From the sequence record MW250786: 64,000 nt of DNA; one strand, written 5' to 3'. The first letter of the stretch is position 1. Each line of letters begins with the position of its first letter. Below are positions 31,980 to 63,894 of the stretch, in pieces. The DNA is from Escherichia phage UPEC06. The notes under the pieces were generated by a model. It saw only the letters and a list, made by a program, of their open reading frames with translations, was not told where the DNA came from and ran no database searches. Both the position numbers and the translations under genes were made by a program.

Positions 31980-32357
31980 TTATACTCCAAATGTGGATTT
32001 GATTTCAGCAATAACCTCATGCACATTGTTTTCGTTTACTTCAAATGTGTAGGACGTTGGTTTAAGGAACGTCTGAGGTGAAACATTAACAAAGAATTCA
32101 AATTCATCATCAAAAATTTCAAAGTATTTTCCCGGTGTTGATTCTTGACTTTTGAAAACAGAACCATCTTCCATAGTAACAGAAGAAACAGATTTTTCAC
32201 CAAGGGTGTATGTTTTTAACTCATCAACAACGAAACTAGGACCGTGACGACGTAGTATTTCAACCATAGTTCGGTTGGCCCCGCAAATACCTGCCCGCTT
32301 AATAAATAACTCTTCACACCGAGGATTGAGAATATAAGTTTTTCCTACTTGCATCAT
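31980..32357 (-). CDS. hypothetical protein, paralog family member 3
   Basis: N-terminal MQVGKTYILNP and C-terminal IKSTF shared with two upstream genes. Confidence 0.5.
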   Translation of the reverse strand: MMQVGKTYILNPRCEELFIKRAGICGANRTMVEILRRHGPSFVVDELKTYTLGEKSVSSVTMEDGSVFKSQESTPGKYFEIFDDEFEFFVNVSPQTFLKPTSYTFEVNENNVHEVIAEIKSTFGV

Positions 32358-32367
32358 AACAACCCCC

Positions 32368-32727
32368 TTATGATAAGTTAAATGTGGATTTGATCAGGTC
32401 GATAGTTTCTTGTGCGTTTTGCTCAGATACTGACACCTGGATAATTTTAAGATCACTGACCTCTTCGAAGTATTTGAACTCGGATTCACGAAGTTCAAAG
32501 TACATTGCCCCGCAGCCCACACTGAATGAATCACACCCTACAGCACCATCTTCTGTTGTGATGTTATTAACATACATATCACCTTCGATCATACTCATGT
32601 TGTTAACAATAAATCGCGGCCCGTGCTCATCCAGAAAAGAAACAATCTCGTGATTGTAACTTGGGTCAGCCTTAATAAATTCTTCCACGAATTTTGGATT
32701 AAGTTTATAAGTTTTACCCACTTCCAT
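32368..32727 (-). CDS. hypothetical protein, paralog family member 2
   Basis: MEVGKTYKLNP...NAQETIDLIKSTFNL; AAGGAGAA RBS. Confidence 0.5.
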   Translation of the reverse strand: MEVGKTYKLNPKFVEEFIKADPSYNHEIVSFLDEHGPRFIVNNMSMIEGDMYVNNITTEDGAVGCDSFSVGCGAMYFELRESEFKYFEEVSDLKIIQVSVSEQNAQETIDLIKSTFNLS

Positions 32728-32738
32728 TTTTGTTCTCC

Positions 32739-33113
32739 TTACGCTAGGTTAAAGGTAGCTTTAATCAAGTCTACGGTTTCTTGTGCATTACTACGAGAGA
32801 CGGCAACTTGAACGATAACAGGATCTTCATCTTCCCCGACTTCTTTAAAGAAGGGAAATTCACTCTCTGCAAGTTCAAAGTATACACCCTTGTTACATTC
32901 GCAGCCGTGAAGACTGTCACTACCTAAAGTACCATCTTCAAATATGACATTGTTAACGTATGTAACATTATCATAAACGTGGGTGGTGTTGACAACAAAT
33001 TTAGGACCGTGTTTATAAAGAAGGTCAGCCAATTCTTGATTGTAGCTAGGGTCCATATTGATAAAAGCTTTTTCTAAGTCTTGATTAAGAATGTAAGTTT
33101 TTCCGATTTCCAT
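32739..33113 (-). CDS. hypothetical protein, paralog family member 1
   Basis: MEIGKTYILNQ...NAQETVDLIKATFNL; start at 33113 with GAGGAG (track start 33200 is too far upstream). Confidence 0.5.
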   Translation of the reverse strand: MEIGKTYILNQDLEKAFINMDPSYNQELADLLYKHGPKFVVNTTHVYDNVTYVNNVIFEDGTLGSDSLHGCECNKGVYFELAESEFPFFKEVGEDEDPVIVQVAVSRSNAQETVDLIKATFNLA

Positions 33114-53301: not shown

Positions 53302-53648
53302 TTTACCTCCATCATAAATACTTTAACTTTTCGTACCTCTAATCTTACTTTATTAGAGCCTTGAAGTCTATTTCTTTTTTCAATTGCGTCATTAATGTCG
53401 CCATAGAAGTAGTGATCCTTACCTATTGTTGGTATTCCATTGCCGCCTTGCATAGCCAGTGTATACATTTCTTTTCCACCTTGCAACCCTTTTGATACTT
53501 TTTCTTCAAAATATTTATTGAATTGGGTTGGTGAAGTGTCAATTTCTACATCATCTTCCCATCCCATAACTTTATCCCAAAAACGGTCAATCTTGTCAAG
53601 AACTTTGTTACTAATCTTTTTAATCTTCTTCAACATAATCTTCCCCAT
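53298..53648 (-). CDS. hypothetical protein
   Basis: ORF in operon. Confidence 0.4.
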   Translation of the reverse strand: MGKIMLKKIKKISNKVLDKIDRFWDKVMGWEDDVEIDTSPTQFNKYFEEKVSKGLQGGKEMYTLAMQGGNGIPTIGKDHYFYGDINDAIEKRNRLQGSNKVRLEVRKVKVFMMEVK

Positions 53649-54108
53649 TATTTATTTGGATACCGAAACGATTTTCATTTGAAGAAAAGAAACCCATCTT
53701 CATCCGATCAATCTCGTGTTTCATAACTTCCTGCATCGTTAATTTAAGGATTTCTTTGTTTAATTTTGGCTTAACTTCACGGAGCTTGTCAAGAAGTTTT
53801 TCCATTTCTTCTTTTACTTTTTCTTCCTCATTTTCTATCTCTAATTGGTCCATTGCATCTTTACAAACACAGCAATGGCCCACAACTCTTAAAATATGAT
53901 TTTGTATAGGTAATGCTTTTCTTCCACAATACCCACAAACAATAGACCCACCGGAGTTTCGAGCATCCACTGTCAATGTAGGTTTGGCCCCTTCTGCCTG
54001 AGAATTCCAAGTCTTTTTGCCTTGATAATCAAACATAAAGAATTCGTAGGATCTTTCATCAACGTGATCTTCGAGCATATGTAAAGTTCTTGTATTGAAA
54101 TGTTTCAT
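53620..54108 (-). CDS. Cys-rich protein (possible zinc ribbon), first gene of - strand early operon
   Basis: CGYCG...HCCVC; start abuts divergent promoter region. Confidence 0.45.
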   Translation of the reverse strand: MKHFNTRTLHMLEDHVDERSYEFFMFDYQGKKTWNSQAEGAKPTLTVDARNSGGSIVCGYCGRKALPIQNHILRVVGHCCVCKDAMDQLEIENEEEKVKEEMEKLLDKLREVKPKLNKEILKLTMQEVMKHEIDRMKMGFFSSNENRFGIQINNGEDYVEED

Positions 54109-54144
54109 TTTTAAACCCTCGTTGTTTGTATGAGCTAACTATAC

Positions 54145-54158
54145 GAGAACTTGAGAGG
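54145..54158 (+). repeat. isolated copy of GAGAACTTGAGAGG motif in divergent promoter region
   Basis: Same 14-mer core as the 4-copy array at 63079-63246. Confidence 0.5.
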
Positions 54159-54169
54159 AAGATCAATAC

Positions 54170-54197
54170 TTGATTTGTATTTTATTTTCATTATACT
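54170..54197 (+). promoter_or_regulatory. sigma70-like promoter candidate
   Basis: TTGATT-N16-TATACT about 30 nt upstream of ATG 54229. Confidence 0.4.
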
Positions 54198-61963: not shown

Positions 61964-62782
61964 ATGGCCTACCGTAAATTTGACCCACTGATCATTTATG
62001 AAGTTGTCCCAATGAGTATAGCCAACCCTCATGGTTTGCAATCACCTACTCCACTTGATCATAAAACAATGATCAGGAATGCAGAGTACACTTTAAGAGA
62101 TCTAGAGAATGAGGAGATTGAAAGTGCTGTGCATGGGTTGAAAGACCTGATCCGTGAACTTGATACGGATGATTCTGTTCAAGAATATATTGAAAAGTCA
62201 GAGGCACTAATCACGAAGTTTCATGAATACCGCACTAAGGTATCTCGTATTCTTGATGAAGCTTTTGATCCTTCATTAAAAGACCCGATAAAGGATGACA
62301 AAGCAATACTCTTGCTTAGTCAAATAGCTGACGCTACTGACAACATGGACCCTGGTTTTGTAAGAGCTGATCATACCTGTGTAGATCAGTTTCCTTTAGC
62401 TTATCTTAAATCCAAAAAGGCATTCGGTAGTCTGGCTTTTGTCTGGGAGTATGAGAAAGATTCCCTTACTCGTTACATCAATCGGGTAGGTAAGAAAGAT
62501 ATTTCAGTTACATTGAACATCTTCTCTGACGGTTCTTTGATGGTTCATAACAACTGGACAAAAGAAAGTATCCTCTTTGGTAAAGAAAGAGATCAGAAAT
62601 TTAAACTGGTAAACTATATCCGTTTCGCAACAGAGGATAGTAAAATGGGTAAGTCATTTAAAGAGGAGGACTTTAAAACTTTCTTTGAAGACTGGCTTTC
62701 CCCAACAGAAGAAGAGATCCAACTATTCAAAGCTGTGAATGGGGATGTTTCGTTCGACCTGTACACACTCTTTAACGAGTGA
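61964..62782 (+). CDS. hypothetical protein
   Basis: 272 aa; last gene before the repeat region. Confidence 0.45.
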   Translation: MAYRKFDPLIIYEVVPMSIANPHGLQSPTPLDHKTMIRNAEYTLRDLENEEIESAVHGLKDLIRELDTDDSVQEYIEKSEALITKFHEYRTKVSRILDEAFDPSLKDPIKDDKAILLLSQIADATDNMDPGFVRADHTCVDQFPLAYLKSKKAFGSLAFVWEYEKDSLTRYINRVGKKDISVTLNIFSDGSLMVHNNWTKESILFGKERDQKFKLVNYIRFATEDSKMGKSFKEEDFKTFFEDWLSPTEEEIQLFKAVNGDVSFDLYTLFNE

Positions 62783-62900
62783 TATTTGTTCGCTGAAACA
62801 AATTCAAATTTCAGATCCAAAATATATTTGAGATATTTCCCTGTGATATTTGTTTCATGGGGAATTTTCAGATTTCAATTTGAAATTCTATTTGAGATAA
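62780..62900. repeat. imperfect ~60-bp tandem direct repeat (2 units)
   Basis: Both units start TGATATTTGTT and share AAATTTCAGAT/AATTTTCAGAT and TATTTGAGATA. Confidence 0.55.
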
Positions 62901-62963
62901 ATTTAAGACTCCTGCCACCGTGCCCCCTCCATACTGTGTCATTCCTGCATACCTGCACCACTA

Positions 62964-62978
62964 GATCAACTTAGTTGA
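62964..62978. repeat. inverted repeat ATCAACT-T-AGTTGAT (operator-like)
   Basis: 7-bp arms, 1-nt spacer. Confidence 0.4.
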
Positions 62979-63078
62979 TGCCCCTTCTTACAGACTCACC
63001 CTCCAGATTCAATACGTTACTGTTCCAGTATACCTGTGATACAAAGCAAACATACGACACTAGTGACCAAAATAATTT

Positions 63079-63246
63079 GAGAACTTGAGGGGTTTTTCAT
63101 TTTTAAGATCGTAACCTGAAAGCTGTTCACGAGAACTTGAGAGGTTTTTCGATACAGCGATTAGGAACTTGAGAGGTTTTTCATTTTTGAGTTTGCATTT
63201 GAAATTGAGAACTTGAGCTACAGGCCAGATACTTGAGGGGTTTTTC
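63079..63246 (+). repeat. array of 4 direct copies (+1 partial) of 20-bp motif GAGAACTTGAGRGGTTTTTC
   Basis: Copies at 63079-63098, 63131-63150, 63163-63182, 63228-63246; partial 63207-63217; irregular spacing 32-65 bp; AT-rich flank. Confidence 0.65.
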
Positions 63247-63609
63247 AAATTTCAGTTTCATTTCAAAATTGAAAAATTTTTTATATGCACAAAAATATAG
63301 GGCTTGTCAAGGTCTTTGATAAGAAATTTTCAGGAGGTGAGAATTATTCTCATTTGCAGAATAACGGGCAGGGGTGGTGATTGCTTCGTGAAACCGTCCT
63401 CATCACCATGAATATATAATAGCACCGTTTTTGATTAGAAAGCAACAACATTTTAAAAATATTTTTCGGTAAATTTTGGGCGAGCTACCGGCGATCCACC
63501 TTACAACCTGGCGGCGATGCCTGGTATGTTAGCCCCGCCTTTACGCCGTGGGGATGGCGATTGTTTTCCTATGTAAGCATTATGGCCCCTGGCGGGGCCG
63601 TTGTCAACA

Positions 63610-63894
63610 TTATTTTTTATCTTCTTGCCAAGTAAGAACGCCTAACCAAAAATACACGTCGCCCTTAGCGTTCGGTGGTATCTTGCTTTCTTTCCCGCCA
63701 GCACACGCCCAAAGGTAACCATCGGTAAACGTATCAAGGTAGTCCATATCTTCCACCTTTCGATCCGCCAGGTTAAGGATAGTATTAACGTCTAAGCCTG
63801 TTGCGCTTGCTACCTGGTAGACCGTGCCACCTTGCCAGCCTAACGAGTGCATAAGATGCAAAGTAGTAGTAGTAGTAGTGGTGATGGTAGTCAT
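63610..63894 (-). CDS. hypothetical protein in GC-rich island, poly-Thr N-terminus
   Basis: 94 aa ORF; N-terminus MTTITTTTTTT from ACT/ACC repeats; local GC visibly higher than the rest of the window. Confidence 0.35.
   Translation of the reverse strand: MTTITTTTTTTLHLMHSLGWQGGTVYQVASATGLDVNTILNLADRKVEDMDYLDTFTDGYLWACAGGKESKIPPNAKGDVYFWLGVLTWQEDKK
63862..63879. repeat. trinucleotide microsatellite (AGT)6
   Basis: agtagtagtagtagtagt, in frame at the 5' end of ORF 63610..63894. Confidence 0.6.

Follow-up and report, generated by a model that had tools for sequence, protein, structure and literature searches.

In the replicons of F (RepE), P1 (RepA) and pSC101, repeats that share one orientation are accompanied by a related operator on the promoter of the replication gene, and the origins of bacteriophages T7 and T4 are promoters that read into an unwinding region, that is into easily meltable DNA. 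A locus that recalls both arrangements is present in Escherichia phage UPEC06, of which a stretch of 64,000 nt (record MW250786) was analyzed; this whole stretch is called the window throughout and positions are counted along it. Judged from its sequence, the phage is a Septuagintavirus, an rV5-like myophage. The locus in question is a non-coding region of about 830 bp that is common to rV5-, CR3-, PVP-SE1-, phi92- and phAPEC8-like phages and carries an array of direct repeats, the core of which recurs, in the window phage, in a promoter of replication genes.

With the iteron replicons (F ori2/RepE, P1 oriR/RepA, pSC101, R6K and lambda ori/O) the region shares direct repeats of about 20 bp that point the same way and lie next to AT-rich DNA, and, as is the case for the RepE and RepA operators, one related copy is found in a replication-gene promoter. 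In F the iterons are direct while the operator is an inverted repeat with partly common sequence; likewise, the operator of Certrevirus is the perfect palindrome TCTCGATCGAGA, only part of which is carried by two of the three array units of phage CR3. Likeness to the primary origin of T7 and to T4 oriF (uvsY) and oriG (34) consists in a promoter directed into an AT-rich, gene-free stretch and, for T7, also in the gp4-type primase/helicase and the PolA-type polymerase present in these phages. The promoter in the window is, however, of the host sigma70 type and neither of a phage RNA polymerase type nor MotA-dependent, and the T7 and T4 origins are devoid of an iteron array.

The repeat array and its copy in a replication-gene promoter

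As claimed in the original prediction, which had been made from the sequence alone, GAGAACTTGAGRGGTTTTTC is found in four complete copies and a partial one within positions 63079-63246, all of them on the plus strand. They are listed here together with the solitary copy and the two promoters that surround it:

63079-63098, plus strand: iteron copy 1, GAGAACTTGAGGGGTTTTTC, equivalent to unit 1 of the three-unit array of other genera, with the downstream AAGATCGTAAC kept
63131-63150, plus strand: iteron copy 2, GAGAACTTGAGAGGTTTTTC, invariant in six close phages
63163-63182, plus strand: iteron copy 3, AGGAACTTGAGAGGTTTTTC (AGGAAC...)
63208-63218, plus strand: partial iteron, GAGAACTTGAG, followed by the eight bases CTACAGGC
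63227-63246, plus strand: iteron copy 4, AGATACTTGAGGGGTTTTTC (AGATAC...), homologous to unit 3 of other genera
54145-54158, plus strand: solitary exact copy of the 14-mer, read as an operator, covering about -27 to -14 relative to the leftward promoter and about -60 to -47 relative to the rightward one
54138-54166, minus strand: sigma70-type promoter TTGATC-N17-TATAGT, at the head of the minus-strand gene block
54170-54197, plus strand: divergent promoter of the sigma70 type, TTGATT-N16-TATACT, serving the plus-strand block next to whose end the non-coding region lies

The 16-mer ACTTGAGRGGTTTTTC yields nine matches in the window versus 2.0 expected, a number reached by none of 100 shuffled sequences; its four exact matches are the four full copies and each of the remaining ones has three mismatches. 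For the 14-mer, four matches with up to two mismatches compare with 0.5 expected. Throughout the genome of W70, a close relative, the 16-mer is confined to the array and the 14-mer to the array plus the site homologous to 54145, so the motif does not occur at random frequency. Tandem Repeats Finder detected no array at the repeats. Their start-to-start distances of 52, 32 and 64 bp equal 4.95, 3.05 and 6.1 helical turns, and the copies may thus lie on a common face of the helix in the window phage. The sequence ACTTGAG recurs 20 bp past the partial iteron, inside copy 4, and the partial iteron has the appearance of a copy that a small insertion or duplication has interrupted. When six Septuagintavirus phages are aligned, 4 of 91 columns vary within the iterons versus 12 of 88 between them (Fisher p=0.037), and two of the four variable iteron columns represent the A/G position that the original prediction had written as R.

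It had also been stated that the repeats do not fit the -35/-10 spacing of sigma70 promoters. This holds true: the best promoter match among the array copies reaches 9/12, usable -10 elements are lacking, and the array units were rejected as promoters. On the minus strand every iteron reads xTGAAA-AACC-core and the operator promoter reads TTGATC-TTCC-core, with the -35-like hexamer in the same register, an arrangement that direct reading of the sequence also reveals in CR3. In their sequence the iterons look like the upstream two-thirds of the operator promoter.

The solitary copy at 54145-54158 had been described as lying between the two divergent gene blocks. The match is indeed exact, and its position can now be stated more precisely, since it is not just situated between the blocks but fills the 17-nt spacer of the leftward promoter (54166 to 54138) that heads the block of replication genes. 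The open reading frame (ORF) at 53620-54108, whose ribosome-binding site and start codon follow this promoter at the proper place, encodes a zinc-ribbon protein and is followed in the minus-strand block by primase/helicase and DNA polymerase genes. The 54145 site and array copy 2 have 16 nt in common (ACGAGAACTTGAGAGG), whereas none of 200 shuffles exceeds 13.

The evidence that carries most weight comes from a comparison of genera. In Septuagintavirus, the array core and the 54145 copy both read GAGAACTTGAGAGG, and GAGAACTTGAGRGG is found in the four array copies as well as in the promoter spacer. In Certrevirus (CR3 and F1M1E), array core and operator both read GGTCTCGATCG(AGA). The homologous intergenic region of CR3 lies between CR3_107, the homologue of the zinc-ribbon ORF, and a gene for an HD-phosphohydrolase, and its minus-strand promoter TTGATT-TCTCGATCGAGACTTGG-TATAGT holds CR3's own array core in the spacer: GGTCTCGATCG is present in the three units and AGTCTCGATCGAGA in the spacer of TTGATT-N17-TATAGT. 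With at most one mismatch, GGTCTCGATCG occurs in 50 kb of CR3 solely at the operator and the three array units (4 sites versus 0.72 expected). F1M1E, the second Certrevirus, follows the same pattern with GGGTCTCGATCGAGA (four sites in 26 kb), and the promoter layout of both phages equals that of the window phage. Five sites at two loci 9-10 kb apart have therefore changed together between sister genera, and the simplest cause would be a shared trans-acting reader that changed its specificity or was replaced. This points to one clade-specific DNA-binding protein that reads both the array and the operator. Such a reader is more likely encoded by the phage than by the host, given that phages of closely related hosts have different motifs. 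Taking the covariation with the operator together with the conserved position of the array and the reduced variability within the iterons, we consider it probable that the repeats are protein-binding sites, just as the core of the original prediction had it.

A conserved modular region in more than one phage genus

When compared with the E. coli myophages LTH01, W70, A7_1, A5-4 and A73, which are filed under Vequintavirinae (genus Septuagintavirus: PMC11370258), the region exhibits 93-97% identity. In the complete genome of W70 (137 kb) the homologous stretch is located at 72.8-73.7 kb between a plus-strand gene block and a cluster of small early-type genes. Positions 62783-63610 contain no ORF of substance, no tRNA as judged by tRNA scanning and no Rfam family; the covariance models of Rfam 15 gave no match in the window at the gathering score and, at a permissive threshold, no more than chance-level matches in the region. 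Where relatives have an 80-aa gene annotated over the repeats, this is most likely an error of gene calling. Among E. coli chromosomes and plasmids no host counterpart was found, the sole 'plasmid' match being an rV5-like phage genome. On the other hand, a sensitive search retrieved the part at 63338-63562 with about 71% identity from 315 phage records, nearly always unannotated under the match. These records include phi92, phAPEC8-like phages, PVP-SE1 and CR3, with Klebsiella, Enterobacter and Pectobacterium among the hosts. The syntenic gap was read in phi92, CR3, 15 IMG/VR contigs, phAPEC8, an rV5-like genome deposited as a plasmid, and KP2025. In the literature available, neither the region nor an origin of replication or Fur boxes in such phages were found described; in rV5 an origin was sought by skew analysis without success, and a 'non-coding' box on the map was left unexplained (PMC3606486).

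The remaining features of the region and the genes referred to below are:

62779-62899, plus strand: left module, two 57-nt imperfect direct repeats (62779-62835 and 62843-62899) with a period of 64 bp
62906-63068: variable spacer, 29 of 163 columns variable, with an inverted repeat at 62967-62981
63247-63335: AT-rich segment (about 70% AT) that separates the palindrome from the last iteron
63338-63352: perfect 7-1-7 palindrome TGAGAATTATTCTCA, unique in the window, counterpart of one to five Fur-box-like palindromes elsewhere
63366-63425: element E1, core ...GGTGATTG(C/T)(T/C)TC..., with flanking G+C stems that differ between clades
63487-63560: element E2, 26 nt identical across genera, present in the window as allele E2a
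63579-63607, minus strand: sigma70-type promoter TTGACA-N17-CATAAT (11/12), firing left into the region with no ORF downstream
61964-62782, plus strand: 272-aa ORF, the final gene before the non-coding region
63610-63894, minus strand: 94-aa ORF, abutting the leftward promoter of the non-coding region
53620-54108, minus strand: 162-aa zinc-ribbon ORF, the first gene behind the operator promoter

Read from left to right on the plus strand, the region is built alike in all these loci and starts at the stop codon of the upstream gene with two to four (G)TGATATTT repeats, which are followed by a variable spacer, three direct-repeat units, one to five palindromes of the form TGA(G/T)AATnATT(C/A)TCA, the conserved element E1, in most clades a TCTTTACA motif pair plus the extremely conserved element E2, and finally the minus-strand sigma70-type promoter that points back into the region. 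The direct-repeat units differ by genus and begin with GGTCTCGATCG in Certrevirus, with GGT(A/T)CTCGATCG in PVP-SE1 and a large IMG/VR group, and with AGTACTCGATCTG in rV5-like phages, while phi92, phAPEC8 and KP2025 have the AT-rich ATTTAAAGTTT type; across the group we distinguish the iteron types GAGAACTTGAG, GGTCTCGATCG, GGTWCTCGATCG, AGTACTCGATCTG and ATTTAAAGTTT. Measured from E2 as an anchor, the units start at -489, -411 and -348 in CR3, at -481, -407 and -340 in the L006 group, and at -450, -375 and -308 in PVP-SE1. The window copies lie at -449, -397, -365 and -301, from which it follows that copies 1 and 4 correspond to units 1 and 3 and that the middle unit has been duplicated. By these offsets, the window repeats are the version of the three-unit direct-repeat array that belongs to their genus, and copy 1 even retains the ...GTTTTTC...AGATCGTAAC flank of the Certrevirus unit. 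In every clade measured all array units are on the plus strand in a single orientation, and outside the genus of the window phage they are spaced by 63-78 bp. The array has thus kept its position across many genera, and the comparison with related phages strengthens the original prediction.

Other parts of that prediction fared less evenly. The tandem duplication of about 60 bp is present and consists, more precisely, of the two 57-nt copies of the left module, which are 72% identical, each open with GTGATATTTG and begin at the stop codon of the upstream gene. In close relatives this module is the best-conserved part of the region (7 of 127 columns variable), and (G)TGATATTT repeats are conserved in all clades. 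Pairs of GATATTTG stand directly after the last gene of two plus-strand blocks (W70 72836/72900 and 82826/82850; window 62780 and 62844); the GATATTTG and (G)TGATATTT repeats may act as a signal at block ends, for example in termination or insulation. The inverted repeat ATCAACT-T-AGTTGAT does exist at 62967-62981. Its conservation does not hold, and it is probably non-functional because it is broken in W70 and A73 and is situated in the most variable part of the region.

To the right of the array, Fur-box-like palindromes follow immediately in every clade in one to five copies. They adhere to the 7-1-7 plan (TGATAATnATTATCA) of the E. coli Fur box (GATAATGATAATCATTATC) and reach 15-17 of 19 positions of the E. 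coli consensus in phi92, phAPEC8 and the rV5-like genome; phi92 has four sites with at least 15/19 within 80 bp and the rV5-like genome one with 17/19. The palindromes are located at L003 2910-3025 (phi92), L004 3485-3605 (CR3), L027 17880-18000 (phAPEC8) and, for the rV5-like genome, L028 1495-1520 and 1630-1655. The window palindrome TGAGAATTATTCTCA, a predicted site only, agrees with 12 of the 14 specified positions of the 7-1-7 form but with only 12 of 19 on the full consensus, from which it departs by symmetric T-to-G and A-to-C changes. Either the Fur protein of the host or a protein of the phage could read it, and it would be unusual for a lytic phage to have Fur boxes. Two GAGA(A/G) half-sites in direct orientation are found at a distance of 8 bp in the iteron at 63079-63092 (GAGAAC-TT-GAGAGG), and the palindrome has the GAGAA half-site in inverted arrangement; this may be a coincidence, or the two may represent a direct- and an inverted-repeat pair for one protein.

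Element E2 exists in two alleles with identical flanks and different central hairpins, E2a in the window phage, W70, A73 and LTH01, and E2b in A7_1 and A5-4 (L030 and L031), which are otherwise more than 91% identical. On contig L019, E2b is followed by a gene for an HNH endonuclease (phrog_953, E 8e-79) and then by E2a, an order that suggests that the E2 swap is driven by a homing endonuclease. The LTH01 record (PP430345.1) was opened exactly at the left border of E2, equivalent to window position 63486/63487 (GAGC|TACCGGCGAT), and has no terminal repeat; the assembly may have been broken at a polymorphic site, or the end may be real or due to chance. Entry CP057073.1 (137,565 bp), which stems from cattle faeces and is filed as an E. 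coli 'plasmid' of the non-mobilizable kind, combines an rV5-type region with phage-like genes and, on this basis, looks like an rV5-like phage genome; it carries a second palindrome-plus-E1-like module in place of E2. The record fits a preprint on persistent Vequintavirinae (bioRxiv 10.1101/2024.12.31.630880).

The leftward promoter (63607 to 63579) is kept in all 19 loci inspected, with 9-12 of 12 matches and a spacer of 17-18 nt, and faces about 800 bp without an ORF. Its spacer is G+C-rich and varies freely in sequence, and constant spacer length combined with free spacer sequence is the signature of a real promoter. From its presence one would expect a primer RNA or a non-coding transcript that has so far escaped annotation. 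Neither consensus folding, applied to both strands of the conserved elements, nor minimum free energy z-scores of -0.5 to -1.3 point to a convincing stable RNA; the 17 distinct sequences compared (16 for some sub-elements) vary too little for covariation to be judged.

A possible origin or copy-control locus and rival explanations

The reading that we favor, to which we give slightly less than an even chance, is that the repeats are iteron-like sites of a clade-specific protein and that the region is a replication origin or a copy-control locus. It is put forward because an array joined to an operator on the promoter of replication genes is the layout of iteron replicons, and because the T7-gp4-type primase/helicase annotated in these phages is found together with a conserved promoter reading into the AT-rich stretch and the iterons. 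In support of an iteron origin, there are four 20-bp copies and one partial copy in one orientation, where at least three direct repeats of 17-22 bp are to be expected, and an iteron-related operator is present at the replication-gene promoter in Septuagintavirus and Certrevirus. What a transcription-primed origin calls for in terms of sequence, a promoter reading into a gene-free region, is present as well. One clade-specific, phage-encoded protein would occupy both the iterons and the operator in the spacer of the replication-operon promoter, where its binding would most simply block RNA polymerase and result in feedback or a timed shut-off. Transcription from the promoter at 63607-63579 would proceed leftward over the two conserved elements and the palindrome into the AT-rich stretch and the iterons, and the transcript would activate or prime initiation, while the iteron-bound protein would organize or limit the event. 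In this scheme the repeats, their conservation, the covariation of the operator and the promoters can be read from the DNA itself, and protein binding, repression, transcription and origin function are what we infer from them.

Several observations speak against an origin. The spacing of the units is irregular and amounts to 32-78 bp instead of the approximately 22 bp of classical iterons. DnaA boxes are represented solely by one-mismatch matches at background density, and no match to the consensus of integration host factor was found. A Rep-type initiator is not apparent in the window clade: searches of Pfam, PHROGs and PDB sequences with 29 neighboring ORFs revealed no initiator or DNA-binding protein. 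The operator of the window phage is 9 kb away from the array, another difference from the iteron replicons. The AT-rich DNA mentioned in the original prediction is present (about 70% AT at 63247-63335 against a genome mean of 59%) and a DNA-unwinding element is possible there, but the stretch is unremarkable, the most AT-rich spot of W70 being elsewhere. GC skew in W70 proved uninformative because it tracks the direction of transcription only and changes where that direction changes; the same was concluded for rV5 (PMC3606486). Furthermore, PVP-SE1 possesses an array and yet has no copy of the array core in the homologous divergent promoter nor any further copy in the scanned 56% of its genome; the spacer of that promoter carries TCTTTACA instead, another motif of the non-coding region. 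In phi92, phAPEC8 and KP2025, with their AT-rich cores, similarities between operator and array (e.g. AAATTATTT) are of too low a complexity to judge. Although the region would work in the manner of an iteron/operator system, we do not file it in any named replicon family because the classical spacing is not kept and no Rep protein was found.

The most AT-rich spot of W70 (91% AT over 80 bp) is situated at 132.3-132.7 kb (L022, about 32300-32740) in a divergent intergenic region upstream of the block leading to the terminase gene and is, by its sequence, a candidate for an alternative, easily melted origin or for a strong promoter region. A cluster of Dam/SeqA sites was considered and rejected for the window phage, whose region shows no excess of GATC, although two GATC are present in every Certrevirus unit.

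Covariation of operator and array would be explained equally well if the region were a regulatory hub or a decoy, with the array offering high-affinity sites that titrate a phage transcription factor, the actual target of which would be the operator at the replication-block promoter, as genome copies rise, or that control the non-coding transcripts of the region, and thereby time the switch from early to middle expression. The dense packing of the region with putative factor sites and promoters (palindromes, TCTTTACA pairs, the leftward promoter) is in line with this possibility, as is the resemblance of the iterons to the -35 hexamer and spacer of a promoter without any -10 element, which is what a decoy would look like, and so is the different region motif in the homologous promoter spacer of PVP-SE1. 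Decoy arrays of this kind are rare, though, and neither the fixed phasing of the array to the conserved elements nor the orientation bias nor the strong promoter directed into the array is accounted for in this way, nor does it say where replication starts; we regard a hub or decoy as somewhat unlikely, yet as the main and a serious rival. That a conserved promoter reads through the array could alternatively mean that the repeats act within a non-coding RNA, for example as a protein sponge or as a mimic of a Type III antitoxin resembling the pseudo-ToxI of phiTE, a related rV5-like phage that uses repetitive non-coding RNA of evolving copy number against ToxIN (PMC3475682). Such a role of the repeats as RNA is very unlikely, since the 54145 copy lies in a promoter spacer upstream of both transcription starts and cannot act as RNA. 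In addition, the repeats are irregularly spaced (52/32/64 bp) and do not form head-to-tail units like the strict 36-nt tandem repeats of ToxI, which also differ in sequence, and Rfam matches are lacking and folding energies weak. Pseudo-ToxI occupies another locus, at 106.7 kb in phiTE, whereas the phiTE copy of the region would be elsewhere: the homologue of the zinc-ribbon gene is at 27.7 kb in phiTE, and this gene is about 10 kb from the region in both the window phage and CR3.

Two further explanations can be dealt with more briefly. The original prediction had named a packaging site as one option besides a replication origin and a regulatory hub. Some pac sites, such as those of P1 and SPP1, do contain repeated short motifs that could be recognized by a small terminase. 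The genome of phiTE is circularly permuted and the phage transduces (PMC3475682), and the GenBank record of LTH01 opens inside the region. That record has no terminal repeat, however, the terL gene occupies positions 1-1488 in W70, about 73 kb away from the region, a link to the replication-block promoter has no packaging logic, and among 60 listed records (of 315 matched) no more than four begin at a distance of up to about 2 kb from the region, so that such starts are not enriched; we therefore see next to no chance for this option. Just as little is to be said for functionless leftovers of local duplications, to which one might ascribe the different copy numbers of the clades (3 versus 4.5) and the interrupted copy: the array has kept its position across genera, the distant operator changed in concert, and variability is reduced within the copies, all of which disfavors neutrality.

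Candidate readers and implications for the phage group

Which proteins could occupy the sites was approached from the gene neighborhood. The 162-aa protein, a candidate for binding the sites or for autoregulation, combines a conserved CxYCG...HCCVCK zinc ribbon with a long helix, and its homologues head the same promoter or are near it in Certrevirus, phAPEC8 and KP2025; in PVP-SE1, which is devoid of the operator too, the examined parts of the genome yielded no homologue. The second candidate binder considered was the 272-aa protein. A gene in its position ends the block in all six clades examined, with homology aligned for CR3, F1M1E and PVP-SE1, and at about 23% identity to its CR3 counterpart it is the most diverged full-length homologue nearby; a full HMMER search yielded only six plausible distant relatives. 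Neither of the two proteins gave an informative domain, sequence or fold match, and their AlphaFold models (pLDDT 66 for the 272-aa and 69 for the 162-aa protein) are uninformative.

In PVP-SE1, the 92-aa protein gp213 (L025 7856-8134), encoded 4.8 kb upstream of that phage's copy of the region, corresponds to the N-terminal, DNA-binding winged-helix domain only of replication-initiator families (PHROG 8102, E 8e-30; also O-like and DnaD-like), which speaks in favor of the origin reading. A protein of this type is also encoded on contig L019 (1889-2164), that is a few kb upstream of the region in PVP-SE1-type phages, and no homologue was detected by tblastn in the window, W70, CR3, phi92 or phAPEC8. 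In the 94-aa ORF next to the leftward promoter, GGTVYQVASATGLDVNTILNL resembles a helix-turn-helix. The identity of this ORF in phi92 and phAPEC8 is 75-77% despite their different iterons, a Pfam match is lacking, and the 50 kb of CR3 examined yielded no homologue; as a candidate reader it would sooner be assigned to the conserved elements than to the iterons.

Combining these elements, one may imagine the module of about 830 bp as the origin and copy-control locus of the rV5/phi92 group, in which a fast-evolving iteron-binding protein would couple origin use to the expression of replication genes and Fur-like operators would confer an iron response on initiation or on an origin-linked RNA, a plasmid-like form of control that could be behind the frequent persistence of such 'virulent' phages in bacterial isolates. 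In its entirety this picture is speculative and we consider it unlikely. The Fur-box-like palindromes nevertheless raise the question whether a lytic phage senses or manipulates the iron regulation of its host.

Phages resembling rV5, phi92, PVP-SE1 and CR3 have been isolated widely and serve in therapy and biocontrol. The analysis newly identifies a conserved modular non-coding region in more than 300 of their sequenced genomes, and the motif pair formed by array and operator, which changes in concert between genera, provides a testable handle. If a function as origin or copy-control locus proves true, it would enable phage engineering and explain a long-standing gap in the biology of the group. 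It might also bear on the finding that the Vequintavirinae top the list of 'persistent virulent phages', of which they are the commonest in bacterial isolates (bioRxiv 10.1101/2024.12.31.630880).

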